Source of the DNA: a candidate division FCPU426 bacterium
GTDB lineage: Bacteria; Oederibacteriota; PGYV01; Palsa-1178
Direction: 5' to 3'
DNA length: 64,000 bases
NCBI GenBank assembly: GCA_963840035.1
Contig: CAWIXE010000003.1
Coordinates: 352,001 to 416,000, forward strand
Position numbers and translations under genes: made by a program. The notes under the pieces were generated by a model, which worked only from the letters and a program-made list of their open reading frames with translations, made no database searches and was not told the origin of the DNA. Below are positions 12,228-64,000 of this stretch, piece after piece; the stretch's first letter is position 1, and each line of letters begins with the position of its first letter.

Positions 12228-15200
12228 TTGGCGGCAAGGAAACTACATAGTTTCCAGAGATTGATTCTATTGCTATCTTTATTTACGGCTATTTTTCTGC
12301 CTGCTTACCTGAACGCGGGCGTTTTAGTCATGGAAAAATCGAGCACAAAGTTTATCGCCGCCATGGGCGAGACGGTAAATTACTGCATCACCATAAACCC
12401 CCAGTACGTCACCCCCAAAGCGGATATAATCTGGGTCATAGACCGCAGCGGGTCCATGTCGTACGGCATAGACAACATCCTTGCCAACATGCGCTATTTT
12501 ACCGAACAGTTAACCGGAAGGAAGATAGACTACAGGCAGGGGCTTGTAACTTTTGTCGACGGTTTTTATGACAATTACGGTTTTGCGGACAATGATGACA
12601 AATTTAAAAGCTGGCTCGCGGACATACCCGTGGGAGGCGGCATAGAGCCTGATCTTGAAGCGCTATATGAGGCAAATAATGTGCCGTGGAGGCCGGACGC
12701 TTCAAAGACCATGATACTTATCACTGACGAAGGCATTCCCTGCGCTGAGGCTGGCGGCGACCCGCTTTATGTCAGCCTAACCGCCAGCGACCTTTATTCG
12801 CAGGGTGTCATCATACACGCCATAACTTACAACCCTTCAATCGCCGGTTATGAGTCCTATAAGTGCAACCCGAAATTCCTGCCTCCTTTAGCGGGCGGCG
12901 TCTGGCTGGACTATAACACTCCGCCGTCCGGATGGAATGTATTCCTGCAGATATTAGGCGAAGCCATAGCCACGATGAATGACGTGAAAATAACGGACCC
13001 TGTGCCGCCGGATTTAATACCCGTGCCGGGAAGCGCGGGTACCGGGGTAATAACCGGCAATGAAATCGTATGGAACTTCACGCAGGTTGACAGGGGCGCG
13101 CCTTTCCAGGTGTGTTTTGACGCAGTGGTAAATACGCCTTTCTACAACACTGTCTCAAACACGGCTTACGGACAGGCCTCAGGCATAAGCAGGACAGCTT
13201 CAAACTCGGTTTTCATAAACATGGCGACATTTACCTCGACACCGACTTATACATGCACGCCGACATTTACTGCCACGCGCACATATTCAAATACTAAGAC
13301 GGCAACATCCACCAGGACGCCGAGCATGACCCGCACGCACACGCATACTCCGAGCGCGACAAAAACAATCACGGATACGGCCACACCGAGCGCTACAAGA
13401 ACCGGGACTAAGACCGTTACTGAAACGTGCTCGCCTTCTGATACGAGCACTGCCACGCCGACTGCCACCCAAAGCGCTACACAGACAATCACAAAGACAG
13501 CCACGCCGACATGTACTGATACTCCAACAGTGTCGCCCACATACACGGGGACAATAACGCGCACAGCAACACCGACTTCCACGCCGACTTATACACGGAC
13601 TGCTACAGGCACCTATACCATAACGGCTACGGGCACGCAGCAGGCGACATATACTGACACACCAACACCTACAGCCACGGCGACTAAGGATGTGGATCAT
13701 TACATTATCGGGGCGCCGGCAAGCGTTCCCGCGGGCGTGCCTTTTTACATAACAGTCACGGCAATTACAAGCACATGGTACGGCAGCCTCGTCGCGGATA
13801 ATTACGCGGGGACCGCTTTCTTCGCGACAAGTTCGCCGCTTTATTCGCTGCCTGCGAATTACACATATATACCGGCTTCTGATTATGGTTCGCATATTTT
13901 TCAGGTGACGCTGATGACGCCGGGGATGCAGTCGGTTACCGCCACTGATACAGTGGACGCGTCTGTCACGGGGCTGGCAAACATACTTGTGACATCGGGC
14001 AATGCCGCGTATTTCACCATAGACGCGCCGGCAACCGCGGTAGCGGGCGATGTCTTCTACATAACAGTCACGGCGAAGGACGCGTATAATAACGTAGTTA
14101 CCGGCTATACCGGCACCGCCGGGTTTGAATCCACGGACGCGCAGTGGGTATCCCCGGGAGACGTGCCGTTTTACGCCGCGGATCAGGGAAAAAAGATACT
14201 TGCGGTCACTATGAAGACTTCGGGCATACAAAAAATATACTGCGAAGACATCATGAACAGCGCCATAAACGGGACCAGCAACGATATCATAATAACGCAC
14301 TCGGTTATCTCGGGCTTTACAGTGTCGGCGCCGACCATAGTCAATACCGGCACGCAGTTTACCTATGTGGTAACCGCGCGCGACGCTTATAACAACGTAA
14401 TAGAAGACTATACAGGCACTGTTCACTTCACATCCACTGACGGCGGCGCAACACTTCCCGCAAATTATACATTCCTGCCGTCCGACTCGGGCTCCAGGAT
14501 ATTCACAGGCGCGCTTGCCGCAAACGGGACACAGTACATATCGGTTAATGACACCCTGCAGCCTTTAAGCGCCGGCACCAGCAACGCGATTAACGCTGTC
14601 ACGCCGCCCACGCAGTACAACAGGCCGCTGCTTTTAACTTCGTACCTTACGCAGCCAAACCACTACGAGTTCTGTTACATAAGGATTGACGACAGAAACT
14701 TTACATTTACCTCAACCGCCAACTATCTGGAGTATGATGTTTACGTCCCTGATTACAGTTCCAACTTCTACTGTTCCACGGAATTTCAGGATGGCGTTTA
14801 CCCGGGCGACGGTAATGACATGAGGGATTATGGACAGACAACTCAGGATTACATAAAGGACCAGAACGGCATAAGGATACACCCGTCCATGGACATATCC
14901 ATATTTGCCAAGGGAAAATGGTACCACAGGAAATTTGACGTAAGTTCGCTGCAGCCGACGGGATATTACAGCAACGGCTTCCTCTCGCAGGACACGGGTA
15001 ATATAGGATACAATGGTGCGCCTTCAAATAACGCGGGTACTTTCAACGCTTTTTTTAACAACATTGCCGTAAAAACATCCGGGGGAACTGTTGTGCATAA
15101 TGTCTTTTCCAACGACACCACGATGAAAATTGGCGGCGGCGTGGTGTACAGCGGCATGACAAACCCTTCCTGGCGGACAGACGCAACTTATCCGCTTGAT

Positions 15201-21200: not shown

Positions 21201-22640
21201 GACGGAACCGCCATAGTATCAATCTCCGGCGAGGTTGACTGGAGTTACAGGACTTATACGCTCGGCACGGGCTCGCATTTGATAAGGTGGATGTATTCTA
21301 AGAACGCGTCAATTACCGCGGGAAGCGACTGCGGCTGGGTGGACCAGGTTGTTTATAACAGGTACACGCCGACCGTAACAAATACGGTAACGAACTCGCC
21401 GACAATAACGGCGACATGGAGCCAGTCCGCCACGTTTACCTCAACCAGGACAGCATCACCAACAAGGACCGCGACTTCAACATTCACGGAAAGCCCGTTT
21501 GTAACCGCTACCCCGACATTCACAATTACGAATACGCATACTGTGACCCTCACGCCGCCGGGAACCGGCATGCTCTGGCAGCTTGCGGCAGCGGCGCCGT
21601 TTACGGGCAGGTTCGGCCACACCAGCGTGGTATTCAACAATAAGATGTGGGTTATTGGCGGTATTAACGGGTCTACTGTTTTAAATGATGTATATTCTTC
21701 AGCGGACGGGGCAACATGGACGCTTGTAACGGCATCAGCCCCTTTCCCGGCGCGTTACCTGCATACAAGCGTGGTATTCAATAATAAAATATGGGTCATC
21801 GGCGGCTACACCAATACAGTGCTTTTAAATGACGTGTGGTCATCGCCGGACGGCCTCAACTGGACGCTGGAAAATCCCGCGGCATCCTTCGCGGGCAGGT
21901 ACTGGCACTCGAGTTTTGTGCTGAACGGGAAAATGTGGGTAACCGGCGGCACAGGCGCAACAAATTACGGCGATGTGTGGTCATCTCCGGACGGCCTCAA
22001 CTGGACGCAGGAGACAGCGATGGCGTCTTTCGGACAGAGGTACGCGCACGCGTGCGTGGTCCATGAAGGAAAAGTCTTCCTTACAAACGGAACATCAGGT
22101 CTTTCATATAATGACGTATGGTCATCAAATGACGGAATAAACTGGACGCCGCTGACATCGGGTGCGCCTTATCCGGCAAGGTACGGGCATACGGTTATTT
22201 CTTTCGGCGGATATTTGTGGATGATCGGGGGCTACTCAACATCCGGTTTTGCAAATGATGTGTGGTCCTCGCAGGACGGGATTTCCTGGACTCAGGCGAC
22301 AGCGGCGGCGCCGTTCGCCATAAGGGCGTCGCATACGAGCCTTGTATTTGCCGGCAGGATATGGGCGCTGGGCGGTTACAGCGGATCAGCTTATCTGGGA
22401 GATGTGTGGCGCTCTCCTCCGGATACAAACCCTACAGCCACATTTACGCGCACTTATACGGCAACGCGTACATTTACGCCCACGTGCACATTTACAAGGA
22501 CCGATACACCCACGCCGGCGTCGCCCACAAATACCGGCACGGCCACAAGGACATCCACGGCCACTGAGTCTTCATCCGCCACGGAGCAGCCCCACATTTA
22601 CGGTTACGCAAACAGCTACAGCGACAGCTACGGCGACTAA
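12228..22640 (+). CDS. Giant secreted adhesin-like protein, N-terminal part (DUF11 with inserted VWA, Ig/invasin-like repeats, 6 PPC/DVUA0089-like repeats, 2 jelly-roll repeats, Kelch-like propeller, Thr linkers)
   Basis: Signal peptide; MIDAS DRSGS; D-x-YE-x-D...DxDWVxF...GTYYxKV x6; W-SS-x-DG-x-x-W propeller blades; last ~16 codons are out-of-register text after a frameshift near 22590. Confidence 0.85.
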   Translation: MAARKLHSFQRLILLLSLFTAIFLPAYLNAGVLVMEKSSTKFIAAMGETVNYCITINPQYVTPKADIIWVIDRSGSMSYGIDNILANMRYFTEQLTGRKIDYRQGLVTFVDGFYDNYGFADNDDKFKSWLADIPVGGGIEPDLEALYEANNVPWRPDASKTMILITDEGIPCAEAGGDPLYVSLTASDLYSQGVIIHAITYNPSIAGYESYKCNPKFLPPLAGGVWLDYNTPPSGWNVFLQILGEAIATMNDVKITDPVPPDLIPVPGSAGTGVITGNEIVWNFTQVDRGAPFQVCFDAVVNTPFYNTVSNTAYGQASGISRTASNSVFINMATFTSTPTYTCTPTFTATRTYSNTKTATSTRTPSMTRTHTHTPSATKTITDTATPSATRTGTKTVTETCSPSDTSTATPTATQSATQTITKTATPTCTDTPTVSPTYTGTITRTATPTSTPTYTRTATGTYTITATGTQQATYTDTPTPTATATKDVDHYIIGAPASVPAGVPFYITVTAITSTWYGSLVADNYAGTAFFATSSPLYSLPANYTYIPASDYGSHIFQVTLMTPGMQSVTATDTVDASVTGLANILVTSGNAAYFTIDAPATAVAGDVFYITVTAKDAYNNVVTGYTGTAGFESTDAQWVSPGDVPFYAADQGKKILAVTMKTSGIQKIYCEDIMNSAINGTSNDIIITHSVISGFTVSAPTIVNTGTQFTYVVTARDAYNNVIEDYTGTVHFTSTDGGATLPANYTFLPSDSGSRIFTGALAANGTQYISVNDTLQPLSAGTSNAINAVTPPTQYNRPLLLTSYLTQPNHYEFCYIRIDDRNFTFTSTANYLEYDVYVPDYSSNFYCSTEFQDGVYPGDGNDMRDYGQTTQDYIKDQNGIRIHPSMDISIFAKGKWYHRKFDVSSLQPTGYYSNGFLSQDTGNIGYNGAPSNNAGTFNAFFNNIAVKTSGGTVVHNVFSNDTTMKIGGGVVYSGMTNPSWRTDATYPLDNYVWIIDGWRGWVTPAAAITADGYQCATITAYVWAPNSGANTKVAYAMIDFKSDRPEDVIEPITVSLNTRAITDWNGNAFARIKSTKPGAANVTLSMGPYTRIVTVNFTAAPANKVVISPANVNTQTGVSSTLGIKITDVNGNFISDGRTINISSSSATMVFSADNGSTWTSTVSVTGTLSRSILVRDSASGTATVTASATGLAPGTATINVNNSPAVKLVIVPQNSASTAGASVAFTVQAKDVSNNNANSNAAVHLSSASTTMYFSSDAANWYQTLDVNLISGSLPVYYRETKAGANVTITAHDNAALLSDGKGYATTAVGAAAFLDATANIYAVTAGRWVTITASVTDAYGNPVANRTITFTPMVQGGKTQDARLNNAADMISVSGTTDAQGKLIAWFKTSTDVDGSMNYCVVNTAGLLGKTVTISASDTAGRLSFLPNPMSLGADKIGVLNINAKDANGYNAPAPAGHEPTHIYANVTSVLFSIDNGLNWYVSVTPTLNSSGAATVNVKTHNTGTYYIMARDLNAGAGHLSDGANTLNVSTGYFVSVAPSAAATAAAGSGVTVTARIVDQNGAFVAMQGVRVQFTTDNGFINPAEAYTDAAGMAQSLLTLSILSNIQHKVSVTISNPDDTKTSGTITSLPVVSYSITSPSQVYRGEPFWVTLRAKDANGIKVDNYAGEVTFTSNDPLAALPSNYIYQIGDAGVKLFQVSLNTNGVKNISAIQADSSSVSGTSQNILVLDPPTATYTSTPTYTPTFTSTATKTITQTITQTATPSVTPSVTQTVTGTVTQTITATITQTATQTVTPTITQTHSVSPTITATPTFTFTATETITQTMTGTFTNTPTFTWTPTATQTATDEDTATFTVTQTITQTQTPYESPTDTWSQTATPTETYTDTPDYSATPTQEDTLEPTQTWTETEVVTDTVTHTSTPTFTATKTNSPDWTATPSYTITDSPTMTATPTVTVTPIPQDIYENDDTYLNAKPIYSYIRQTHNIVPANDVDWMVFTLSSFAQVIIETSGVPADTQMWLYSAAGVPLTYLNYDDDSGSGAYSKIEAMLDAGTYYIKVQEFGQNDIVTQYFVDLTVIGTDVYENDNVYTSASTITNGETQNHSIYPANDTDWVKFDVAVTSVVTLQTSGDGYGDTVMYLYNSAGVPASYMTYDDNNGGVLWSKITATLGPGTYYVKINENGMNSQIGLYHLTLNMTQSTPTPTFTPLVGDSYENDDTYTNASEILSGVQQQHSIHTASDVDWVKFTIDANSVVTISTSGLSGDTQIYLYNSAGVPGTYYAYDDNGGIGFFSGMTRTLTPGVYYLKIQENGQNAVISSYYVSVDIGVITPTYTPTVVLGDSYEVDNTFNNAKVIDLGTTQAHSIHAMGDADWVKFTVTQESIITIETSGSLSDTEMWLYDNLMVPTTQLAYDNDSGSGLFSAITRQLVPGIYYIKVGEYGNNATIDNYNISVSALVITPTLTPTPAMADAYETDDLYTSATWLYEGADQEHSIHTNTDTDWVKFTIGTGATVVIETYGTAGDTIMSLYNSTDVPSTPIITSDGGGTGQFAKISYVLPAGTYYVKVQESGQNAVVGQYFIKLYVSQDTPTATATNTPASGDAYEYDGTYLTAKTITSGISQIHSIFPSGDSDWVKFDVTGPSTVTLETSGTTGGDTVLYLYNAAGAASGTSLAVNDDGGTGYWSKITYAITTPGTYYARVVEYSNYYTISSYYLSLTIVPQMSPTQTPYYSPTSTVTPSSTSTETEVYTPTATSTVTITINEAVDNSALVFTTAGNAVWAGITGFGYSDNDSAKSGAIGDNMQSYVQTTVAGPGLITFWWKVSSDAADTLTLYDGKNVIQSISGDVDWEQVSYAVPSGTHAIKWEYSKDASVSGGLDTAWLDMVEFTYMTPTDTPEMTATATPTFTVTPAPTISIPEAVDNFTLTYDTYGAARWFGESAVSYYGGDAAQSGAAGNSQYSYMETNVTGPGVFSFYWKVSSQSGGDYLLLYIDGTAIVSISGEVDWSYRTYTLGTGSHLIRWMYSKNASITAGSDCGWVDQVVYNRYTPTVTNTVTNSPTITATWSQSATFTSTRTASPTRTATSTFTESPFVTATPTFTITNTHTVTLTPPGTGMLWQLAAAAPFTGRFGHTSVVFNNKMWVIGGINGSTVLNDVYSSADGATWTLVTASAPFPARYLHTSVVFNNKIWVIGGYTNTVLLNDVWSSPDGLNWTLENPAASFAGRYWHSSFVLNGKMWVTGGTGATNYGDVWSSPDGLNWTQETAMASFGQRYAHACVVHEGKVFLTNGTSGLSYNDVWSSNDGINWTPLTSGAPYPARYGHTVISFGGYLWMIGGYSTSGFANDVWSSQDGISWTQATAAAPFAIRASHTSLVFAGRIWALGGYSGSAYLGDVWRSPPDTNPTATFTRTYTATRTFTPTCTFTRTDTPTPASPTNTGTATRTSTATESSSATEQPHIYGYANSYSDSYGD

Positions 22641-24324
22641 TACGCCTGAAGTTGGATTATGGCACCAGGTGGCTGACGCGGCAGCGCCTCCGGGCAGCGG
22701 TTCGGCAAGCCCTTACGCGTGGTACTACGGTATAGACGGGGCTAATAATTACAATACCGGCGCGAGGACTTATGGCAGCATGGTTACGGGGAATTTCAGC
22801 GGGATTATGTCAGGTTCAACGCTGTCATTTTTAAGCTGGGCACAGACTGAGAATTCCATGTCAGTTGATCTAAGGCGGCTTTATGTGTCAACGGATGGCG
22901 GCGGAAGCTGGGGACTGCTCACTGACCTGCTGGGCAATGAGGAAATATGGTATCCGGTCAGTATAGACCTTTCAGCGTACTCGGGACAAAGCGTCATGTT
23001 CAGGTTTGAATTTGACTCGGTGGATGATTTTGCGAATGATTTCGTGGGCTGGTACGTGGATGATATCAGGGTAGTGATGCCGACCCCGACTGTTACAAAT
23101 ACGGTAATATTGCCGACCGCTACAGATACGCCGGTTTACAGCCCGACAGGTACAGCGACAAATACGCCGGTTTATAGCCCGACAGAAACATCGACTTACA
23201 CTCCTGTGGTCAGCCCAACATTTACAGAAACAAATACGCCTTTCCATAGCCCTACGGAAACATTTACACATACGCCTACAGCAAGCGCGACAGAGACGCC
23301 GGATGTAAGCCCCGCGTTTACGGAAACTGACACGCCTGTATGCAGCCCTACGGAAACACCGACAGATACTCCCGTGTGCAGTCCTACACAGACACCGACG
23401 ATTACGCCTGTGTTAAGCGCGACAAATACACCGGCATTAAGCCCCACAAACACGCCTGTTTACAGCCCGACAAATACGGCTACGGACACGCCTGTTTATA
23501 GTCCGACAAGCACGTCCACTAATACACCGGTATACAGCCCGACACAATCAGAAACTAATACACCGGTATACAGCCCGACACAATCAGAAACTAATACACC
23601 GGTATACAGCCCGACAGAATCAGAAACTAATACACCCGTATACAGCCCGACACATACAGCGACCGTACCAAGCGCTACAGTTACGCCTGTTGTCAGCGCT
23701 ACCGCTACAGGGACAAAGACAACCATAGCGAGCAGGACATTTACTCCGACAAAAACGGGGACGCCGACTATTTCCGCCACATATACGGCGACGGCTACTA
23801 TTACATCGACCGGTACAATGACAAACAGCCCGACACGTACATATACAGCGACTCCTTCCGCCACTCAGAGTAACACGACGACATCAACGGGTACGCACAC
23901 CAGGACTGCGACACTTACGGCAACACCGTCCCCGACATTTACGCCGACGGTCACAGCTACGCATAAGCCGCTATTTACCCAGACCGCTACATCAACGCCG
24001 GTTATGCCGACATTTACGCCGACACCTCAGCCCACGGCGCCTAACGCGGGCCGTTTAAGCTCATATGTTTATCCGCAGCCGGCGTCAAAACACCTGACTT
24101 TCGTTTACAGCCTGAAAAAATCGGCAGAGGTAAAAATAGTCATATATAACGTGGCAGGTATGGATGTTGCCGTGCTTTCAGTCATAGGGCAGGCGGTTGA
24201 TAATAATAAAGCATATTTAGACCTTGCCGGATTCGCGCCGGGGACATATTACTACACCATAAAAATAGACTACAGGACACAGCAGGAGACATATAAGCCC
24301 GCGAAGTTCCTGGTAGTAAAGTAG
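22591..24324 (+). CDS. +1-frame continuation of the giant protein: MAM-like jelly-roll domain, TNTPVYSPT repeats, T9SS type-A-like CTD
   Basis: Reads PTFTVTQTATATATATNTPEV directly from the junction; no signal peptide or RBS of its own; ends YVYPQP...IYNVAG...GTYYY...KFLVVK. Confidence 0.75.
   Translation, partial: PTFTVTQTATATATATNTPEVGLWHQVADAAAPPGSGSASPYAWYYGIDGANNYNTGARTYGSMVTGNFSGIMSGSTLSFLSWAQTENSMSVDLRRLYVSTDGGGSWGLLTDLLGNEEIWYPVSIDLSAYSGQSVMFRFEFDSVDDFANDFVGWYVDDIRVVMPTPTVTNTVILPTATDTPVYSPTGTATNTPVYSPTETSTYTPVVSPTFTETNTPFHSPTETFTHTPTASATETPDVSPAFTETDTPVCSPTETPTDTPVCSPTQTPTITPVLSATNTPALSPTNTPVYSPTNTATDTPVYSPTSTSTNTPVYSPTQSETNTPVYSPTQSETNTPVYSPTESETNTPVYSPTHTATVPSATVTPVVSATATGTKTTIASRTFTPTKTGTPTISATYTATATITSTGTMTNSPTRTYTATPSATQSNTTTSTGTHTRTATLTATPSPTFTPTVTATHKPLFTQTATSTPVMPTFTPTPQPTAPNAGRLSSYVYPQPASKHLTFVYSLKKSAEVKIVIYNVAGMDVAVLSVIGQAVDNNKAYLDLAGFAPGTYYYTIKIDYRTQQETYKPAKFLVVK
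23518..23654 (+). repeat. 36-bp coding tandem repeat (TNTPVYSPTQSE), ~3.8 near-perfect copies within a longer degenerate tract
   Basis: ACTAATACACCGGTATACAGCCCGACACAATCAGAA repeated. Confidence 0.85.
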
Positions 24325-24331
24325 GGCCGCC

Positions 24332-25504
24332 ATGAGAAGAATAATGACGGCGGCGGCAATAAGCGTGATGTTTTTTTCAATGATAAGCGGCTACACAAAC
24401 AGCAGCGCGAAAATAATATACCCGTTCGTGGACATAGCGCCGTGCGCGAGGGCCGCGGCGCTGGCCGACTCGGTGTGCGGAATGAACGTGGAGGAGTCGG
24501 GATATTATTTTTCAAACCCGTCGGTGCTGGCTTCATTGAAAAACCCGCAGCTTAACCTGACATACGGCAGGTGGTTCGTGGACACGAGCTACCAGAACCT
24601 GACAGGGGCGTCGAACTTTAATTTCGGGGCCATGGGGTTCCAGCTGTTATACGTAAACCACGGTTCCTTTGACCGCAGGGATGATTTCGGGGCGCTGTTA
24701 AACGGCACGGTTGAGTCGTATAACGTGGCGGTGTCAGCGGCGTACGCGATGAAACCAATGGCAAAACTTTCAGCTGGAATAGCGGTAAAGACGATTATAG
24801 AGTCAGACGCCTCGGATGTGAGAGGCACGGCGTGCGCGGATATCGGGGCGATGTATGAATTTGAAAAGATGACGCTGGGGATGGCGTTAAACAACATAGG
24901 GGCGGACGCGGTCTACGGGCTGCCGTTTACGATAAGGGCGGGAGTATCAGCGCCGTATACGATAACACAAGAGCACAAGCTTATGATGGGACTTGACACG
25001 AAATACATATTAAACGACGAGATGACGATATCAGCCGGGATAGAGTACGGTTACGCGGAGACGGCATTCGCGAGGCTGGGGTACAAGTTAAGGACAGGGG
25101 CAAGTTCATTTGACGCCATATCAGGGTTCACCTTTGGAACAGGCGTAAAAGCGGCAGGGCTTGCTTTTGATTACGCGCTTGTTCCGTTTACAGACCTGGG
25201 GTTTACGCACAGGGTGACGGTGTCGTATGTTTTCGGCGCGGCCGTAAAAAAACCCGCGGCCAAAAAAGCGGCAGGCAAAGATGAGGACGAATCAAAAACA
25301 ATAATGCAGTATTTTGACGCGGTGACCGCGGATAAGAACGACATAAAGGCGTGGAAAAAACTCGCCCGCGCCCATGACCTTTTCGGGAACATTGAGATGG
25401 CGTTAAAGACGGTAAACGAAGCGCTGACAGTCGCGCCGAATGATAAGGAACTCATAAAGATGAAGGGCGATTACGGGAAGATATTAAATAAGAGTGGAAA
25501 GTAG
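24332..25504 (+). CDS. PorV/PorQ (UPF0164)-family outer-membrane barrel with C-terminal TPR
   Basis: ARAAALADS...NPSVLA N-terminus, LNNIG, ARLGY, FDYALVPFTDLGFTHRVTVSYVF barrel end, then TPR-like AWKKLARAHDLFG. Confidence 0.8.
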   Translation: MRRIMTAAAISVMFFSMISGYTNSSAKIIYPFVDIAPCARAAALADSVCGMNVEESGYYFSNPSVLASLKNPQLNLTYGRWFVDTSYQNLTGASNFNFGAMGFQLLYVNHGSFDRRDDFGALLNGTVESYNVAVSAAYAMKPMAKLSAGIAVKTIIESDASDVRGTACADIGAMYEFEKMTLGMALNNIGADAVYGLPFTIRAGVSAPYTITQEHKLMMGLDTKYILNDEMTISAGIEYGYAETAFARLGYKLRTGASSFDAISGFTFGTGVKAAGLAFDYALVPFTDLGFTHRVTVSYVFGAAVKKPAAKKAAGKDEDESKTIMQYFDAVTADKNDIKAWKKLARAHDLFGNIEMALKTVNEALTVAPNDKELIKMKGDYGKILNKSGK

Positions 25505-52850: not shown

Positions 52851-53105
52851 AATTCTGGATTCAAGATTCTGGATTTTGAATTGTATTTGTGAGAATTATA
52901 AAACATACCGTATATACAGGTTTTTTTGACGTCTGCATGCAAAATCCAAAATTTAGAATCCGGAATTGAGAATCAGCCCCCTATTAAAAGTTGACAAAAA
53001 ACTTCACGCCAGTTATAATGGTTAATAAGGACAATTCTAGATTCTGGATTCTAAATTCTAGATTGGTTGTATTAAGTACTTAATTTAGAATCCAGAATCT
53101 AGATT
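52851..53105. repeat. Two heptamer inverted-repeat elements (ATTCTGG family) bracketing a promoter
   Basis: Arms at 52851-52882/52943-52974 and 53033-53064/53082-53105. Confidence 0.75.
52991..53019 (+). promoter_or_regulatory. Sigma70-type promoter
   Basis: TTGACA-17 nt-TATAAT. Confidence 0.8.
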
Positions 53106-53120
53106 AAAACCGAGGTATAT

Positions 53121-55022
53121 TTGATGGCGAAGTTTTTACGTAAACTCAGCCTGGCTTTCATCATGTGCGTTATATTCTTTTCTGCGGCGCAGAACTTAAA
53201 CGCGGCTTGCAATCCTGTTATGGTAACATTGTGCGCGGCTGTGGATGACACCGCGATCATCTGGGTTAACTCCATGCAGGTAGGCTCCTTTACTTACGTA
53301 AACTGGAACCAGGCCGGTTATCCTAAATGTATTACATTTGCTGTTGACGATCCTAATTCAGCCCCGCCTGCGGATCCATGGGATGTCCCCATGTATGACG
53401 CGCCCTATGGCGCGAACATAGTCGCTATACAGGTGCAGAACACCAACTGCTGTGAGGTTTGGGGATCATGGTCCATGGACATACTCTGCGACACAGGCGC
53501 GCACGCTTACATGTCGTCTGACGACGGGGAAAACAGGATGTATAATAATTACGCCACGCCGGGACCGGCAAATACTCCGCCATACTGCCCTGAATTCTGC
53601 CTGACGCCGCCGCCAAATGACGGCGCTCTGACATGGTGGCATCATGACTATACACTGGCTAATCCATGGCCGACGCCCATTAAAGATACCGGGACCATAT
53701 GGGGAAAGCAGATATATCACCCGGGGACAGGGGCTCTGCTCAGGCCGCTTTCATACGATAGCAGCGGCACAGGGGAGCATCCTCCGGCGTACCTATACAT
53801 GAGGCAGGCGTATTACCTGACGCCGGCGCCGACACCATTGCCGCCGTTTTTTACCATTACAAAATCAGTCGTGGGCGATCCGCTTACTGTAAATACATCG
53901 AGCCAGGATATTACCTACATATTGCAGGTATGCAATACAGGGCAGCAGCCGGAATTGGGTAAATTGGTCGTAACAGACAGGCTTGATCCGGCTCTTGGTT
54001 TCGCAGGGTTGGTGGATGGAACGGGCAGCTGCGGCGAGGACTGGAAATTTGGGCCGAATTCTTGTGATAATAATCCAGCCCCGGGGTATATCAGGATTGA
54101 ATATCCAAGGGGTTTCCCAGGAGGCACTTGTTTAAATGTCACAATACGGGCACGCGACTGGTGGATCGGTCCGGACGATTTCTGCAAGGTAAGGTATAAT
54201 TACGCCGGCGTGCACTGGCCTTCAGGGGACTTTACGCCGAATATAACGCCGGATGCGGCTTCAAACACCGTGAACGTCACCATGTACTGCCCGGGGACGC
54301 CGACATTTACCCTGACTGTTTCGGAAACATGGACGCAGTCATATACGCGCACCATTACCATGACAAAAACGGCTACGCCGACAGTTACAATGACATCAAC
54401 CAGGACCAGGATACCTACATGGACTAACAGCCCGACAGAAGTTCCTACAGGCAGCACAATTACGGTTACTTTGACCAGGACTCTTTCAGCGACCCTTACA
54501 CCGACTATGTCATGGACCCCATCCGCAACGCCGACAGTTACCGTTACATACGTAAATATCATAGCGCTTGCCAAGTCCGAAGACTGCTGGGATATAAATT
54601 GTGAAGTGCCTCTGGGGGATACGGTTATATACTGCATAACATTTACGAACCTGCTTGACCAGCAGGCGTCTTTTACAATATGGGATACCATACCTGACGC
54701 CATGAATTTTGTTTCAGCGTCGGACGGAGGCCAGTTAATAACCTGGAACGCGGCCATAGTGCCGCCGAGGACCGCGCCGCTGAGGGGAATAGTATGGTCA
54801 TTGAAGGATGTGCCTCCCGTGTCGCAGGCGCCATATAACTGGGGCACAGTATGTTTTACTGTATGGGTGGCAAGGATAAGTTATGCGGGGCTTGATGAAA
54901 ACAGCTATAAATACGCCTATTATGATGATAAAAAGGAAAAAGTCACGGCGCAAAAATATTTTTCGCCGGCAAGGGATGAGGGATTGATCCGAGGCCCCGG
55001 AGGCGGAAGGGCAACCCCATAA
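53121..55022 (+). CDS. Secreted Cys-rich protein: N-terminal beta domain, one complete DUF11, Thr linker, C-terminal truncated DUF11
   Basis: Signal peptide; TITKS...VTDRL...YNYAG...ASNTVNV (complete); ALAKS...GDTVIYCITFTN...WDTIP...VCFTVWV (no final strands); start TTG 53121 or ATG 53124. Confidence 0.8.
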   Translation: MMAKFLRKLSLAFIMCVIFFSAAQNLNAACNPVMVTLCAAVDDTAIIWVNSMQVGSFTYVNWNQAGYPKCITFAVDDPNSAPPADPWDVPMYDAPYGANIVAIQVQNTNCCEVWGSWSMDILCDTGAHAYMSSDDGENRMYNNYATPGPANTPPYCPEFCLTPPPNDGALTWWHHDYTLANPWPTPIKDTGTIWGKQIYHPGTGALLRPLSYDSSGTGEHPPAYLYMRQAYYLTPAPTPLPPFFTITKSVVGDPLTVNTSSQDITYILQVCNTGQQPELGKLVVTDRLDPALGFAGLVDGTGSCGEDWKFGPNSCDNNPAPGYIRIEYPRGFPGGTCLNVTIRARDWWIGPDDFCKVRYNYAGVHWPSGDFTPNITPDAASNTVNVTMYCPGTPTFTLTVSETWTQSYTRTITMTKTATPTVTMTSTRTRIPTWTNSPTEVPTGSTITVTLTRTLSATLTPTMSWTPSATPTVTVTYVNIIALAKSEDCWDINCEVPLGDTVIYCITFTNLLDQQASFTIWDTIPDAMNFVSASDGGQLITWNAAIVPPRTAPLRGIVWSLKDVPPVSQAPYNWGTVCFTVWVARISYAGLDENSYKYAYYDDKKEKVTAQKYFSPARDEGLIRGPGGGRATP

Positions 55023-55025
55023 AAT

Positions 55026-55056
55026 AAAAAGGCGCGGCATAAAGCCGCGCCTTTTT
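55026..55056 (+). terminator. Intrinsic terminator
   Basis: A5-GGCGCGGC-ATAAA-GCCGCGCC-T5. Confidence 0.85.
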
Positions 55057-55399: not shown

Positions 55400-55428
55400 T
55401 TGACAAAATAGCTATCTGTTTGTATAAT
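55400..55428 (+). promoter_or_regulatory. Sigma70-type promoter for the 55590-64000 operon
   Basis: TTGACA-17 nt-TATAAT. Confidence 0.75.
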
Positions 55429-55589: not shown

Positions 55590-56921
55590 ATGGAAAAGTT
55601 TTCCGCGAAATATAGTGTAATTCTGACAACAGTTTTAATAATATTTTTCGCGTCCGCGAATGTTTTTGCGGCAACTCTTTCCGTCTGCCAACCGTCGGGT
55701 TGCACATATAGCACAATAGCGGCAGCTTTAAACGCGGCTGCCGCGAGCGGAGATACGATCGTTATTTCCAGTAATATTTCTGAGGACTGCGCGATACCGA
55801 ACAATTTAAACAAAACTGTGGCGATTACATCCGATGGGACCAGAAGGACCTGGACAAACGCAGGCGGTTCGAATGTATCAATATCAAATATTGGCACATC
55901 GTGCAACCTGTCATTTTCAAACCTCGACATAGTAAATACCACTGGAAGCACAATGATGAACTTTACGAATTTCCAGCCCGGAACCACATTTAGTTTTATT
56001 AACTGTACCCTGAAGAATACAACACAGAGCGGAAGGCTTGTCGACCTGCAAAATGGAGGGTTCCTGAATTTTTACGAGTGCGAGCTTGTCGGAAACAACC
56101 TGACTTCGGAGGGGATACTGCTTGAATCCGGCGTGGGTTCGGGCAAAGGGCTGTATATGCAAAATTCCATAATAAGGGGCATATCAAACGGCAAAGCCCT
56201 GAATGACCAGTATGCCAGCGGCGCCAACGCGACACTCAGGAACTGCACCTTTGAGGGAAACAGCATCGCGATAGAAACCCAGGGCGCGCTTACGGTCCGA
56301 AACACACTTTTTATAAACAACACAAATGACTTAAATCTCACGAATATTAACGCCTGGGCTACCGCGGCGATGAACAGCGCGTACCAGTACTGCAGTTTCC
56401 ACGAACAGACCACAACGATATCGGACGGAGGAGCGCACGCCTGGACCGGTTATACGGGGAATATATTCGGCACTCCGAACACGATAGTACAGGATTATGT
56501 GAACCACAACCTGCACCTTGACTGCGGCGACACCGTCTATGCTGTGGATAAAGGCGCTAACATGTCCGCGTACTATACGGTGGACAAAGACTACATGCAG
56601 AGGCCGCAGGGAACCGCGTATGATATCGGAGCGTATGAGTGCCCGTCGCTTCAGATATCGAAGTCGGCAAATGTGTCCGCCGCGTACCTCGGTGATACGG
56701 TGACATACTGCATAACTTACACGAACAATTCCACGGATGACAAGGATACGGATATCTGGGACACGGTCCCGGGGAACATGGTGTTTTCTGGATGCGATAA
56801 TTCCTGCGACACGCAGGCGTACGGCATTTATAACGTGGTGCACTGGTACATAGCGCTCCCGCCGGGAGCGTATGGCACAGTGTGTTTTTACGCGAGGATA
56901 ACGGATTACGTAAGGCCTTAA
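55590..56921 (+). CDS. Secreted parallel beta-helix protein with choice-of-anchor-Q-like motif and C-terminal truncated DUF11
   Basis: YSTIAAALNAA..GDTIVI; AVDKG...RPQGTAYDIGAYE; QISKS...GDTVTYCITYTN...WDTVP...VCFYARITDYVRP*. Confidence 0.85.
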   Translation: MEKFSAKYSVILTTVLIIFFASANVFAATLSVCQPSGCTYSTIAAALNAAAASGDTIVISSNISEDCAIPNNLNKTVAITSDGTRRTWTNAGGSNVSISNIGTSCNLSFSNLDIVNTTGSTMMNFTNFQPGTTFSFINCTLKNTTQSGRLVDLQNGGFLNFYECELVGNNLTSEGILLESGVGSGKGLYMQNSIIRGISNGKALNDQYASGANATLRNCTFEGNSIAIETQGALTVRNTLFINNTNDLNLTNINAWATAAMNSAYQYCSFHEQTTTISDGGAHAWTGYTGNIFGTPNTIVQDYVNHNLHLDCGDTVYAVDKGANMSAYYTVDKDYMQRPQGTAYDIGAYECPSLQISKSANVSAAYLGDTVTYCITYTNNSTDDKDTDIWDTVPGNMVFSGCDNSCDTQAYGIYNVVHWYIALPPGAYGTVCFYARITDYVRP

Positions 56922-56951: not shown

Positions 56952-57683
56952 GTGAATGCAAGATGGGCGGCGGCAGTAAAAATCAAAACACATATTTATG
57001 TATTTATAATCATTCTGGCGATGCATTCTATTTCTTATGCTACTGCTTCGATTGTTAGTGTCACAACGAGCCCGAGCCCCGCGTGTGGGGCCGCTACGCA
57101 GACGATTAGTGTGACCGTTGTTTTTTCTGAAAATTCTGCGTGGCAGGCTGTTTATGGAGCGGTTGTTTTTTCTGCAGATGCTTCTTGGACTAGCTCAGAT
57201 ACTTGGGCGGTAGGAGGTACAGGATGCGACCCGTGCTGCGACGGGGCGCTTTGGGGAACTGCGGGGGGCACTGTTCCGCAGACTTTTACCTGGGCAGGTA
57301 ATGTAACAATACCCAGCGGGTCATTTACACGTATGCTTATAGCAACACATACTGGGACACAATACAATTGCGGCAGTGATGGTTCCGCCATGACGTGGAT
57401 TGTATTTTCGCCTTCATGCAGCCCCATCACATCAGTAAATAAATCAGCGGATAAAACATCCATGTATGTGGGAGATACTGTGTCGTTCTGTCTTACCACG
57501 ACAAATACCGGCGGGTCAAATTATACTTTCAATATGTGGGACACGGTGCCGGCAGGACTGACTTATCTGGACTGCAGCGATTCTTGCACGTATTCGGGAG
57601 GAGTCGTGTCCTGGACGATTACAAATCTCGCCGGCAGCAGTGCGGTGACAAGGTGTTTTCGGGCAACGGCTAATACCCCGTAG
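56952..57683 (+). CDS. Small secreted protein: Cys-containing N-terminal domain plus C-terminal truncated DUF11
   Basis: AGGAG RBS, signal peptide; SVNKS...GDTVSFCLTTTN...WDTVP...RCFRATANTP*. Confidence 0.85.
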   Translation: MNARWAAAVKIKTHIYVFIIILAMHSISYATASIVSVTTSPSPACGAATQTISVTVVFSENSAWQAVYGAVVFSADASWTSSDTWAVGGTGCDPCCDGALWGTAGGTVPQTFTWAGNVTIPSGSFTRMLIATHTGTQYNCGSDGSAMTWIVFSPSCSPITSVNKSADKTSMYVGDTVSFCLTTTNTGGSNYTFNMWDTVPAGLTYLDCSDSCTYSGGVVSWTITNLAGSSAVTRCFRATANTP

Positions 57684-57749: not shown

Positions 57750-60700
57750 ATGAATACAAACAGGCTAACCGCGGTAAAGAGCGGGATAATGCTGTTTGTA
57801 TTATTGTTTCTGATGCTGTTTCATGGCAGCGCGCTTTTTGGAGCGACCCTTGTTAGCTTCACATCAAACCCTTCTCCGGCGTGCGGCGCTGCAGGACAGA
57901 CTATCTCGCTTACCACGGTTGCAATAAGCGGTACATATACTACTATTTCGTACACTATAATGTTCTCGGCTGATACTACAGCGGGAAACGCAGGAGATGT
58001 ATATGTTGTTGGAACTAATTGCGCAAACGGCAATGCAGCTCTTGGAACTGAAAACGCTCCGGCGGTAAATATTACAAAAGTAGATACTGTGACTATACCT
58101 GCAGGAACATTTAATTACATAATAGTAACTTTAACTGATAATAATGGCAATGGCTGTTCCAATAAAGGGCAGATTGCGTTTACCACCGCATGCGGGCCGA
58201 CAAATACAACGACGGTTTCTCCTACTATCACACCTACGCCTACACCTACAAGGATATTTATCAGCAATACCGGATACGCGGACGGAAAAGCATCCAACAG
58301 CGTCAGTGTCGAGATCCTGCTTGTCGCCGGGCCGCCGACGAACACGCCTTCGATCACGCCGACGTATACCATAACGCAGACAGTGACGCCGACCGTCACG
58401 AGGACCATCACGCCGACCATCACGCTGACCGCGACAGATACATTTACCAGGACTATCACGCAGACTATTACGCAGACCAGCACGCAGACCGTTACACAGA
58501 CTACTACCCCGGTATTTTCCCTCACCATGACCATGACCGTTACCCAGACAGCCACGCAGACGGTGACCAGGACAATAACGCAGACGATAACGCAGACGAT
58601 AACACAGACGATAACACAGACGATAACGCAGACAATAACCGAGACTGTGACGCGGACCATATCTCCGACGTGGACCAACTCGCCGGATAACAGCATGACA
58701 TTTACACCGACGGCCACGCCGACTTCGTTCCCGGCATGTATTTTTTCGGATTATTTTAATAACGCATCATTTGACGCCTCAATATGGAACACCGCGAACG
58801 TCGGTGCCGGGTCCAACGGCAGCCAGGCGGAGTCGGGGAACCTTACCATTACTGCGCAGGGCGGGGACATTGCGGGTACGGCGGATTCGTTCTATTACAT
58901 TTATCAGAAGACCAGTTCGGCAAACCTCGACATAAGGTTCCGTGTCACTGCGATTGGCAGCCAGTGGAACTCAAGGGTAGGTATCATGATCAGGGAGTCA
59001 ACAGCTGCTAATTCGGCTTTTGCTTCCATAAACATCAATAATAACAGCCACGATGACATTTCTCAGCAAAGGGCCTCGACAGGCGCCGGTGTATCATCGA
59101 GCGACCACTATAACGGTGGCAACTACTTAAGGATGGTAAAGACCGGGAATCAGATAATAACCTATGATTCTCCTGACGGTATTACATGGAATATACAGCA
59201 GACATATAATTTCGCATCATTTGCAAGTGATTATACTGTGGGAATTGTTGCAACTTCAAACACGGGCAGCAATAACACCTTCAGCGGGCAGGATTTCCAT
59301 GTTCAGACTGGCGCCTGCGGAACCCCGACGTTTACTGCAACTCCTACAAACTCAAACACATATACAGTCACATATACGCGCACAAACACACCGACTATTA
59401 CCGTGACTTATTCCAGTACATATACAAGGACTATAACACCTTCAATAACCCCCACATTTACGATAACCCCGCGTACCATTGGTAATATCGCAAATACAAG
59501 GTTTGGCCAGTCAAATAACGTGCTTGTGGCGGTATTTACGCCGACAGGCGCAATAGCCACAAATACCTTTACTGCTACGCGCACATCCACACCCACAGGC
59601 ACGCCCACGGCGACAAGGACATATACTGCGTCAGTTACCCCTACAGGGGTGCAGAACGTGGGTAACTGGGATTACGGCCAATCCAACTTTGTTGGCCTCA
59701 TTATAGTAACACCTACATTCACGGCCACCATAACTGTTTCACCAACCGTAACACCCTCATTTACATTTACCTACACAATAACCAGGACACCAACCTTTAC
59801 AGTAACACAATCAGTTACGGTCAATAATACAAACACGGTAACTGTCACGGGGACGCCATCGGTTACTCAGACTTTGACGCCTACATATACAACTACCGTA
59901 ACGCAGACTGTGACCCCGACTATAACGCAGACTATGACCCAGTCTGTAACCAGGACTATAACCATTACTGTGACGCAGAGCGTAACGCAGACTGTAACCA
60001 CGACCATATCGCAGACTGTGACGCAGACGCTCACACAAACAGTGACACAGACAGTGTCGCAGACGGTAACTCAGACAGTGTCGCAGACAGTCACGCAAAC
60101 GGTTACGCCAACTACATCGCCGACTTATACGCGGACTATAACTTTGACCGCGACCCAGACCGTGACGCAGACCATGACCCAGACCGTTACGCAGACGTTG
60201 ACGCAGACTGTTACAACGACAATAACACAGACCGTCACACAGACGGCGACTCAGACTATAACTCAAACAGCGACACAGACGGCAACGCAGACCGTGACAC
60301 AGACCGCGACTCAGTCAATAACGCCTACGACATCGCCTACGTTTACCCAGACCGTCACACAGACAGTAACGCAGACAGTGACGCAGACAGTGACACAGAC
60401 AGTGACACAGACGCTGACGCAGACAGTAACTCAGACTGTGACACAGACGGTAACGCAGACGCTGACGCAGACAATAACACAGACGGTAACGCAGACGCTG
60501 ACGCAGACAATAACACAGACGGTAACGCAGACGCTGACGCAGACTGTGACGCAGACAGTAACGCAGACGCTGACACAGACAGTAACGCAGACGCTGACAC
60601 AGACAGTAACGCAGACTGTAACACAGACACTGACGCAGACGGTAACACAGACACTGACGCAGACGGTAACACAGACAGTGACGCAGACCGTATCGCAGAC

Positions 60701-63700
60701 AGTAACACAGACGCTGACGCAGACAGTAACACAGACAGTGACGCAGACAGTAACGCAGACAGTGACACAGACAGTAACGCAGACTGTGACTCAGACTGTA
60801 ACACAGACGCTGACGCAGACAATAACACAGACGCTGACACAAACAGTGACGCAGACAGTGACACAGACAGTGACACAGACGCTGACGCAGACAGTAACTC
60901 AGACTGTGACACAGACGGTAACGCAGACGCTGACGCAGACAATAACACAGACGGTAACGCAGACGCTGACGCAGACTGTGACGCAGACAGTAACGCAGAC
61001 GCTGACACAGACAGTAACGCAGACGCTGACACAGACAGTAACGCAGACTGTAACACAGACACTGACGCAGACGGTAACACAGACACTGACGCAGACGGTA
61101 ACACAGACAGTGACGCAGACCGTATCGCAGACAGTAACACAGACGCTGACGCAGACAGTAACACAGACAGTGACGCAGACAGTAACGCAGACAGTGACAC
61201 AGACAGTAACGCAGACTGTGACTCAGACTGTAACACAGACGCTGACGCAGACAATAACACAGACGCTGACACAAACAGTGACGCAGACAGTAACGCAGAC
61301 AGTGACACAGACAGTATCGCAGACAGTAACGCAGACGCTGACGCAGACAGTGACACAGACAGTGACGCAGACAGTAACACAGACAGTAACGCAGACAGTA
61401 ACTCAGACCGTAACACAGACACTGACACAGACGGTGACACAGACAGTAACGCAGACAGTGACGCAGACAGTATCGCAGACAATAACACAGACGCTGACAC
61501 AAACAGTGACGCAGACAGTAACGCAGACAGTGACACAGACAGTATCGCAGACAGTAACGCAGACGCTGACGCAGACAGTGACACAAACGGTAACGCAGAC
61601 AGTAACGCAAACAGTGACACAGACGGTAACGCAGACGCTGACGCAGACAGTGACGCAGACAGTGACGCAGACAGTATCGCAGACGGTAACACAGACGCTG
61701 ACGCAAACAGTGACACAAACTGTAACACAAACTGTAACGCAGACTGTTACACAAACAATAACACAAACAATAACACAAACAATAACACAAACAATAACAC
61801 AAACAATAACACAAACAATAACACAAACAGTGACTGAGACAGTAACTCAGACAGTGACACAGACAATAACGCAGACTGTATCTCAGACAGTAACACAGAC
61901 GTTGACGCAAACAGTAACACAGACTGTAACACAGACTGTATCGCAGACGGTGACACAGACTGTAACACAGACGCTGACTCAGACAGTGACACAAACTGTA
62001 ACACAAACGATAACGCAGACAGTGACACAGACAGTATCGCAGACGGTAACGCAGACTGTGACTCAAACTGTGACTCAAACTGTTACACAGACAATAACGC
62101 AAACATTGACACAGACTGTCACCCAGACTGTAACGCAAACTGTGACACAAACTGTATCGCAGACTGTAACGCAGACTGTGACTCAAACTGTTACACAGAC
62201 AGTGACACAGACAGTAACGCAAACATTGACCCAGACTGTCACGCAAACTGTATCACAGACAGTAACGCAAACGTTGACACAGACAGTGACGCAAACAATA
62301 ACACAAACAGTGACTGAGACGGTAACACAGACGCAGACACAGACAGTGACACAAACTGTAACACAAACGATAACGCAGACTGTGACACAGACAGTATCGC
62401 AGACGGTAACACAGACTGTGACACAGACAGTATCGCAGACGGTAACACAGACGGTAACACAGACTGTGACTCAAACTGTTACACAGACAGTGACTCAAAC
62501 TGTTACACAGACAGTGACTCAAACTGTTACACAGACAGTGACTCAAACTGTAACTCAAACAGTAACGGAGACAGTAACACAGACAGTGACGCAGACCGTT
62601 ACGCGAACAGTAACTGAGACAGTAACCCAGACTATGACACAGACAGTAACGCAGACAATTACACAAACAGTAACGCAAACGTTGACGCAGACAGTAACTG
62701 AGACAGTAACGCAGACTGTTACACAAACAGTGACACAAACAGTGACACAAACAGTGACACAAACAGTGACACAAACAGTGACGCAGACAGTGACGCAGAC
62801 AGTGACGCAAACAGTAACTGAGACAGTGACACAGACCGTTACGCGAACAGTAACTGAGACAGTAACCCAGACTATGACACAGACAGTAACGCAAACAGTG
62901 ACCCAGACAGTCACCCAGACTGTCACACAAACTGTATCACAGACAGTTACGCAGACGATAACTCAGACAGTAACTGAGACAGTAACACAAACGTTGACGC
63001 AGACAGTAACACAGACAGTGACGCAGACGGTGACGCAGACAGTGACGCAAACAGTAACTGAGACAGTGACACAGACCGTTACGCGAACAGTAACTGAGAC
63101 AGTAACCCAGACTATGACACAGACAGTAACGCAAACAGTGACCCAGACAGTCACCCAGACTGTCACCCAGACTGTCACCCAGACTGTCACCCAGACTGTC
63201 ACCCAGACTGTCACCCAGACTGTCACCCAGACTGTCACCCAGACTGTCACCCAGACTGTCACCCAGACTGTCACACAAACTGTATCACAGACAGTTACGC
63301 AGACGATAACTCAGACAGTAACTGAGACAGTAACACAAACGTTGACGCAGACAGTAACACAGACAGTGACGCAGACGGTGACGCAGACAGTGACGCAGAC
63401 AGTAACGCAGACAGTAACGCAGACAGTGACACAGACAGTGACGCAGACAGTGACACAGACAGTGACGCAGACAGTGACACAGACAGTGACGCAGACAGTA
63501 ACACAGACCGTTACTCAGACTGTAACTGAAACAGTGACACAGACAGTGACTCGGACAGTAACGCAGACAGTAACTGAGACAGTAACGCAGACAGTGACAC
63601 AGACAGTAACGCAGACCGTTACTCAAACAGTAACACAGACAGTGACGCAGACAATCACACTGACGGTGACACAAACAGTAACGCAGACAGTTACTCAAAC

Positions 63701-64000
63701 AGTAACACAGACAGTAACACAGACAGTGACACAAACAGTAACACAAACCGTTACTCAGACAGTAACTGAAACAGTGACACAGACCGTCACACAGACTGTA
63801 ACTGAGACAGTAACACAAACAGTAACGCAAACTGTAACAGAAACTATAACCCAGACCGTAACGCAGACCGTAACGCAGACCGTAACACAGACCGTAACAC
63901 AGACCGTAACTAAAACAGTCACGCAGACTGTAACTGAAACCATAACGCAGACGGTAACGCAGACCGTAACGCAGACAATGACACAGACCGTGACGCAAAC
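57750..64000 (+). CDS. Giant secreted scaffold/stalk protein (>2083 aa, runs off window; missing from ORF track): N-terminal domain, three DUF11-strand peptides, ConA-like lectin domain, QTVT repeat
   Basis: AAGGAG RBS, ATG 57750, signal peptide [31 protein letters not shown]; frame read open to 64000; [18 protein letters not shown]...GIMIRES...SPDGITW domain at ~58730-59320. Confidence 0.88.
59898..64000 (+). repeat. 12-bp coding minisatellite encoding (Q-T-V/L/I-T)n, over 300 units in window
   Basis: CAGACAGTRACR-type unit; nearly pure from ~60350; smaller block at ~58370-58660. Confidence 0.95.

Follow-up and report, generated by a model that had tools for sequence, protein, structure and literature searches.

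Introduction

Immunoglobulin-like (Ig) domains closed by an isopeptide bond have been described as intramolecular stabilizers, and the tag/catcher glues as laboratory inventions. SpyTag/SpyCatcher is an engineered pair made from a split isopeptide Ig domain, and DogTag/DogCatcher is reportedly an engineered pair of the loop-friendly kind. The cellulosome is built on a scaffoldin with cohesin–dockerin pairs, and in chaperone-usher pili a single N-terminal donor strand yields a linear polymer; A-ENA sporesilk is said to be a natural instance of self-forming intermolecular isopeptide bonds.

The accessible portions of the literature add to this list the tag/catcher pairs engineered after a screen of CnaB domains (PMC5487036), an archaeal thread with an intermolecular isopeptide (PMC9715654), the tat-fimbriae, which are donor-strand fibers (PMC11821415; the "DUF11" matches in its text proved to be DUF1102 and were discarded), and the phage capsid cross-links, natural self-forming intermolecular isopeptides cited in PMC12617251. 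The latter paper, in its accessible part, renames DUF11 as CLIPPER and describes an intramolecular Lys715–Asn806 bond with Asp748 as the presumed catalyst (structure 9IFR); the terms "truncated", "SpyTag" and "donor" are absent from that part. A natural split CLIPPER pair was not found in the literature covered, which was mostly the main text of open-access papers.

Here we describe a locus within a window of 64,000 nucleotides (the whole stretch of DNA analyzed) which, with a probability that we put at roughly 0.72, encodes a natural system of this kind: three tags of one giant Thr-rich protein would slot into the truncated DUF11 domains, here called catchers, of three proteins encoded upstream, and a likely spontaneous Lys–Asn bond would fix three heads on one stalk.

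Organization of the locus

The scaffold gene starts at 57750 on the plus strand, fills the window to its end (57750..64000) and continues to C3:426015, encoding 5421 aa of which 44% are Thr. From the N terminus, its product consists of a signal-peptide-like start, a small Cys domain, tag 1, a globular domain of ~195 aa and tags 2 and 3, followed by a TQTV-type stalk of ~4400 aa, two FlgD_ig repeats and a type IX-type sorting domain (TIGR04183, 29.4 bits, cut-off 23; PF18962, 27.7 bits, cut-off 27). The stalk, in which Thr occupies nearly every second position over ~4400 residues and the word TQT occurs 586 times, is among the most extreme low-complexity stalks of the genome and, like other Thr-rich stalks, likely O-glycosylated. 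No cohesin or dockerin match was obtained with Pfam in the three cargo proteins or in the first 717 and last 301 aa of the scaffold, the remainder between these scanned ends being Thr repeat.

The three cargo genes precede the scaffold on the same strand. Gene A (53121..55022, plus strand, 633 aa) begins with an N-terminal domain belonging to no named family, followed by an intact DUF11-like domain (residues 243–395), a Thr linker, catcher A (54552..54881, plus strand; Lys485 and Asp522; TIGR01451, 29.5 bits, cut-off 24; no Pfam match) and a tail of 49 aa. Gene B (55590..56921, plus strand, 443 aa) has an N-terminal region that closes with a choice-of-anchor Q motif, from whose pattern we take the region to be a beta-helix, and then catcher B (56643..56918, plus strand; Lys358 and Asp391), which scores 21 bits with PF01345, under the cut-off of 24.6, and 25 bits with TIGR01451 (cut-off 24). 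Gene C (56952..57683, plus strand, 243 aa) consists of a small Cys domain, 33% identical to the first domain of the scaffold, and of catcher C (57423..57680, plus strand; Lys164 and Asp197; PF01345, 35.6 bits over positions 3–86 of 114). The catchers span residues 478–587 (A), 352–443 (B) and 158–243 (C), and disulfides are likely in B and C. All three catchers pass TIGR01451, and in all three the chain is truncated at the strand at about position 85 of the 114 positions of the DUF11 profile, the last two strands being gone; B and C meet their stop codon at this point and A runs on into its tail. The heads of the window's proteins have no clear match in the PDB or the Atlas and no enzyme match.

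Two sites with a full sigma-70 consensus (12/12, TTGACA-17-TATAAT; a consensus match only) lie on the plus strand before gene A (52991..53019) and before the run formed by B, C and the scaffold gene (55400..55428). Behind gene A is a terminator-like hairpin (55026..55056, assigned to neither strand), which was scored on the minus strand and is T-rich on both sides.

The tag peptides and their relation to intact DUF11 domains

The first-pass annotation of this DNA had proposed three free-standing hairpin peptides, each flanked by TPT-rich sequence and with Ser nine residues after the first Asn. These particulars hold for tag 1 (58251..58325, plus strand; Asn173 of the scaffold), tag 2 (59472..59537, plus strand; Asn579) and tag 3 (59646..59708, plus strand; Asn636), whose translations are correct and in frame within the open reading frame that starts at 57750. 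When the proposed motif was scanned genome-wide, it yielded four matches in 11507 ORFs as compared with 0–1 in ten local shuffles of the ORFs of at least 150 aa, the four being the three tags and one site in C2:1657782-1662548. A looser pattern fell to background over the whole genome (nine observed, 4–22 in shuffles), so that it is the exact pattern that matters. A profile built from 34 tags reaches at least 14 bits at exactly six genomic sites, all six having been part of its training set, and at one, none and none in three shuffles.

The spacing of nine residues is frequent, not universal, Ser or Thr at +9 together with Asn at +10 being present in 37 of 49 distinct tags. The first Asn is found in 41 of 41 tags, an invariance which is in part a selection effect since the tags were anchored on it, and the Asn of the Ser-Asn (SN) pair varies (35/41). 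In nine of the ten tags having two Cys, the positions of these residues relative to the Asn add up to 12, and such pairs occupy three registers (+1/+11, −1/+13 and −3/+15), as cross-strand disulfides of one hairpin would.

As to the resemblance of tag 1 to the end of an intact DUF11, also put forward at first pass, the terminal hairpin of the intact domain of ORF 12228 (13140..13229, plus strand; a comparison outside the system) is there, but its N-to-SN spacing is 14 and not nine. More generally, the spacing is mostly nine in the tags and mostly 14–19 in the intact domains of relatives. As to the expected alignment of the tags with the terminal strands of DUF11, the tag profile falls on intact terminal strands in the right register, N to N and SN to SN, but the match is weak (hhalign E 0.0027, probability 11%), in an alignment that contains one wrong reference row (L029). 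With a model made only from 31 intact hairpins of relatives, tag 1 comes first among 5111 Asn sites, tag 2 130th and tag 3 635th, and the two Cys-type tags come 1626th and 1910th. A generic public model of the DUF11 end, for which the same wrong row applies, fails to single out the tags (ranks 776, 1092 and 1526 of 5459), its profile being swamped by Thr-rich sequence, and none of 41 tags taken alone gives a PF01345 match in a Pfam scan. The likeness to intact ends is therefore uneven overall and, for tags 2 and 3, appears modest or weak. In 19 of the 20 non-terminal DUF11 domains of the genome, N-x-[AGSV] follows immediately after the core. From sequence, the tags are likely free-standing copies of the last two beta-strands of DUF11/CLIPPER, and since the three tags match the strands that are missing upstream, the giant protein is likely a branched docking scaffold.

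Reactive residues and the nature of the bond

The first-strand Lys and the Asp of the catchers, kept in 56/56 and 57/57 cases, respectively, align in the catcher profile with Lys715 and the Asp of the DT pair of 9IFR; the distance between the two in 9IFR is 34 residues by alignment count and 33 by the numbering in the accessible text of PMC12617251. In the profile of the intact domains, in the alignment that includes the wrong row, the Asn of an N-x-A motif falls on the residue 91 positions after the Lys, that is on Asn806. The correspondence extends to the N/SN motif highlighted at first pass, in which the counterpart of Asn806 is the first Asn rather than that of SN. By these alignments of tags and catchers to 9IFR and to intact domains, the predicted reactive triad is divided between gene products, the upstream proteins providing Lys and Asp and the tags the first Asn.

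It could be argued that the tags complete the domains in trans without any covalent link, by donor-strand complementation, and that Lys, Asp and Asn are structural residues or react too slowly. All the co-occurrence evidence presented below is equally compatible with such a non-covalent completion; some DUF11 domains are without the isopeptide bond, according to the accessible part of PMC12617251, and a tag loop that is shorter than in intact domains (9 vs 14–19) could shift the geometry of the site. On the other hand, the residues required for the bond, namely the Lys, the Asp and the first Asn (the last with the selection effect mentioned above), are kept without exception across two genes, unlike the SN Asn, and we consider this alternative unlikely. 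By analogy with CLIPPER, a covalent Lys–Asn bond from catcher to tag is what we would probably expect.

Fold of the truncated domains

An AlphaFold2 model of the catcher of a relative (L040) shows seven confident strands for the domain alone (pLDDT 87–98), so that the domain may be stable without a tag. The model superimposes on 9IFR with a Z of 9.7 and an rmsd of 1.8 over 85 aligned residues (20–111 of the 123 residues of the chain), a score tied with those of unrelated Ig folds, and its coverage of 9IFR, by our numbering, stops just before the Asn strand. By this model the catchers are CnaA-like Ig sandwiches. A canonical feature of CLIPPER, the reactive Asn in the same chain, is absent from the catchers, whose chains end before the Asn strand; they are truncated members of CLIPPER and not canonical domains. 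In an AlphaFold2 model of a natural protein having both tag and catcher, the tag is unstructured (pLDDT 35–41), a result that rests on an alignment in which only 8 of 48 rows spanned the tag and that was read as a non-cognate combination.

A C-terminal tail of 15–55 aa follows the domain in 49 of 56 catchers and is missing in seven, B and C included. The tails (L003–L073; 54882–55019 in the window) share a loose P-[FY]-x(3-9)-E-[YF]-F-A pattern and often overlap the start of the next gene. The idea that the tail acts as a stand-in strand was rejected, the models giving a low-confidence helix; it is possibly a cleaved or a retention signal.

Occurrence in the genome and in its relatives

The genome holds seven truncated domains and six tags, and all four tagged proteins are encoded immediately behind catcher genes. 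Besides the window's locus, the catcher genes at C2:1208270, 1217937 and 1662610 are each directly followed by a one-tag stalk gene, and paralogues located nearby have intact domains fused to a stalk of their own. The seventh catcher gene (C1:911489) stands alone; its catcher is 84% identical to catcher B and its head only 25%, pointing to a head that may be exchanged on tag 2. The concern raised at first pass that the motif might occur at background frequency in Thr-rich proteins, irrespective of truncated DUF11 neighbors, is not borne out: 4 of 105 such proteins are tagged, all four directly behind a truncated-DUF11 gene, and the remaining 101 have no tag (0/101), only these negatives being independent because the model was trained on tags of the same genome.

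Over all loci, which were picked from DUF11 and tag hits and comprise kin that are not independent, there are 70 distinct catchers. A tag downstream is present in 55 of the 62 cases that can be judged (52 by profile, three by eye), the 70 being made up of 47 with a tag found by script, five with tags found later, three with tag-like islands recognized by eye, seven orphans and eight near a contig end. A sorting domain is present in none of the 70 truncated-domain genes as opposed to 18 of 18 genes whose last DUF11 is intact, and none of these 18 is followed by a tag gene. Among 14 tags held out of the alignment (one of which had previously been seen by eye), a truncated domain immediately precedes 12, another sits at the end of a contig, and the remaining one, with no such domain within 6 kb, is nearly identical to a tag for which its genome encodes a catcher at another site.

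The tag profile, trained on the same order and applied to genomes of which many are incomplete, has hits in 19 of the phylum's 99 genomes: the genome itself, 7/7 of its family, 10/16 others of the order and 1/75 beyond. Against 1.84 billion representatives it gives 11 matches, seven being true tag proteins of the same kind and four unrelated repeats, and none of the 11 is a scaffold carrying more than three tags. A DNA-pattern scan of genome contigs returned 15 loci, of which seven were examined and found to be of the same kind, a result with little bearing on range; the catcher profile run against longer proteins retrieved mostly ordinary multi-DUF11 adhesins. Candidatus Goldiibacteriota, or Goldbacteria, are among the named records encoding truncated-domain catchers. 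The accessible text of a paper on rare cellulose-degrading bacteria (PMC7031533) names the Goldbacteria group 41 times and does not contain DUF11, threonine, FlgD or linker. As far as these sequences go, the pairing of tags and catchers is general in the lineage.

The same data bear on a further possibility, that the truncated domains are self-sufficient seven-stranded units, capped by their tail or directed to another target, the peptides being spacers or cleavage or glycosylation signals of the same operons. The confident folding of the catcher alone, the tail of most catchers, the undocked tag of the tag-plus-catcher model and the existence of both orphan catchers and orphan tags would all suit it, but the tail is missing from seven of 56 catchers, among them B and C, and where modeled is a low-confidence helix and no strand; moreover, no tag occurs in the 101 other Thr-rich proteins or in a gene following any of the 18 intact-domain genes, the number of tags tracks that of the catchers (see below) and their Cys pairs imply a hairpin. 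We regard this possibility as very improbable, and docking of the tags into the catchers, as judged from sequence, as very likely.

A last reading, in which sequencing error or decay accounts for the split, or read-through or frameshifting mends it into one chain, is close to inconceivable and was rejected. Genuine frameshift-like breaks do occur in such genes (C3:265958-268767; L097), but the tags lie 170–640 residues deep in a separate gene that has a signal-peptide-like start, a linear fusion of three catchers to a single chain is impossible, the hairpin pattern is absent from every frame of the three intergenic gaps, the truncation point is identical in 70 distinct sequences and an orthologous locus with three catchers and three tags (L034) contradicts it.

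Architectures and pairing

Locus L034 has the window's layout, with three catchers followed by a stalk whose three tags agree in type and order with those of the window. In L058 there are catchers A and B and only tags 2 and 3, and L055 combines tags 2 and 3 with catcher A and a B remnant, with a B-type catcher on a separate contig; the tag1-type tag and the C-type gene are jointly missing from both. The numbers of catchers and tags often match, as in L034 (3+3), in L058 and L065 (2+2) and in the chains described below.

Across 23 one-to-one pairs, similarity among catchers correlates with similarity among tags (rho 0.83; 0 of 5000 permutations), a correlation that shared descent of linked genes may by itself explain. 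Parallel conservation is seen for three tag types and three catcher clades, and the closest one-to-one catchers accompany the tag3 type. A nearest-neighbor prediction assigned all multi-locus catchers to this type and, being uniform, leaves the assignments of B and C to gain, loss and elimination. On these grounds a pairing of catcher A (gene 53121) with tag 3, of catcher B (gene 55590, together with the distant gene C1:911489-912832) with tag 2, whose partner comes by elimination, and of catcher C (gene 56952) with tag 1 seems somewhat better than an even chance.

Other loci (L041, L047, L060 and L100) form chains whose middle gene has both a tag and a catcher. In these middle genes and in P0124–P0127, the tag and the C-terminal catcher are separated by ~60 Thr-rich residues. 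Such proteins are possible adaptors, or polymer subunits. A circularly permuted domain was considered for the chain proteins and set aside as improbable, since their catchers cluster with those that the scaffold-type tag serves. One relative has a one-to-one locus in which a GH74 xyloglucanase (E 6.6e-133) forms the head of the catcher protein.

Proposed assembly

If the tags do engage the upstream catchers covalently, the four proteins would reach the periplasm through their signal peptides and each tag, as a hairpin, would complete one truncated domain, the Asp then catalyzing, as the CLIPPER structure suggests, formation of the Lys–Asn bond with loss of ammonia. Each tag may prefer its own catcher (A–tag 3, B–tag 2, C–tag 1), and the odds are about even that the heads, which have no sorting domain, are exported or held at the surface via the sorting domain of the scaffold. 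The product would be a long stalk bearing five heads close to its tip, two of them the scaffold's own domains and three attached. Its basis lies in anatomy, residue conservation, co-occurrence and matching numbers, set against which are the 7 of 62 catchers without a tag gene and the one held-out tag without an upstream catcher.

It is conceivable, albeit as a tentative extension that we would sooner doubt than assert, that mutually orthogonal covalent tags serve throughout the lineage as an address code for branched surface assemblies, swapped heads, adaptor chains and type IX-type carriage, which would amount to a covalent counterpart of the cellulosome and a library of ~50 tag/catcher variants. 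Should the assembly exist as proposed, it would be a new way, branched, modular and enzyme-free, of building bacterial surface complexes, and it would suggest piggyback export via a type IX-type system. In practical terms, what is offered are ~50 chain-internal tags of ~20 residues and 70 catchers of ~90, many of them paired by gene order; orthogonal pairs are a present lack in protein engineering.

Type IX-like components and other DUF11 proteins of the genome

The genome encodes an SprA-like frame of 2177 aa scoring under the cut-off (gene at C2:376275-379652), 39 matches to the PorV/PorQ family of which 27 exceed the cut-off, and 98 proteins whose C-terminal domain is type IX-like; no PorU/C25 peptidase was matched in the genome by a search in which the controls were equally silent. 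One PorV-family gene lies within the window (24332–25504). Together these components would make up an unusual type IX-like system outside Bacteroidota. Some 35 probable lipoproteins of the genome are without a sorting domain and have a signal ending in Cys followed by a K-rich and a Thr-rich linker.

The window also encodes (12228–22640) a Thr-rich surface protein of 3470 aa, whose first DUF11 has an insert after the second strand that we take, from an apparent DRSGSM motif, to be a von Willebrand A-like domain. Large domains are inserted after the second strand in several other DUF11 domains (C1:1054832-1074774 and others). The ORF 12228–22640 overlaps the next one (22342–24324), which holds the sorting domain, so that a frameshift or a sequencing error is likely near 22600. 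At C3:265958-268767, the two strands of an intact-type DUF11 hairpin are separated by a change of frame, the probable cause being an assembly indel and not a split system.

Comparison with known systems

With CLIPPER/DUF11 (PF01345, 9IFR; PMC12617251, accessible part) the locus shares family, fold and the equivalent places of Lys, Asp and Asn; the difference is that the bond is intramolecular and stabilizes a stalk in CLIPPER, whereas here the Asn strands belong to another gene product. In the phage capsid cross-links (accessible part of the same paper) and in A-ENA sporesilk, side chains are likewise cross-linked between chains without an enzyme, but the folds are others, the assemblies are homo-assemblies and there is no portable peptide tag. 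Donor-strand fibers (PMC9715654 and PMC11821415, accessible parts) resemble the locus in that strands of another chain fill out an incomplete Ig fold; they use one N-terminal strand and grow linearly, whereas the tags are internal two-strand hairpins (residues 173, 579 and 636) that would give side branches. Among the ORFs neighboring the locus, no chaperone or usher gene is evident.

In SpyTag-type pairs the reactive residues are similarly divided between a domain and a short peptide, which here too would complete and lock the rest, and DogTag is the closest likeness to the internal hairpin tags. Those pairs are laboratory-made, while the present ones are natural, of the CnaA-like CLIPPER type, known in dozens of variants and with several tags per chain. 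The likeness to the scaffoldin of the cellulosome lies in one surface scaffold with several docking sites and heads encoded nearby or far away, with a GH74 head in a relative; here, in contrast, it is the small module that sits on the scaffold, the link is predicted to be covalent and the window's heads are no recognizable enzymes. By analogy, the locus would thus combine a chemistry like that of SpyTag/SpyCatcher with a layout like that of a scaffoldin, as a member of neither group, and its own addition is the three-site scaffold.
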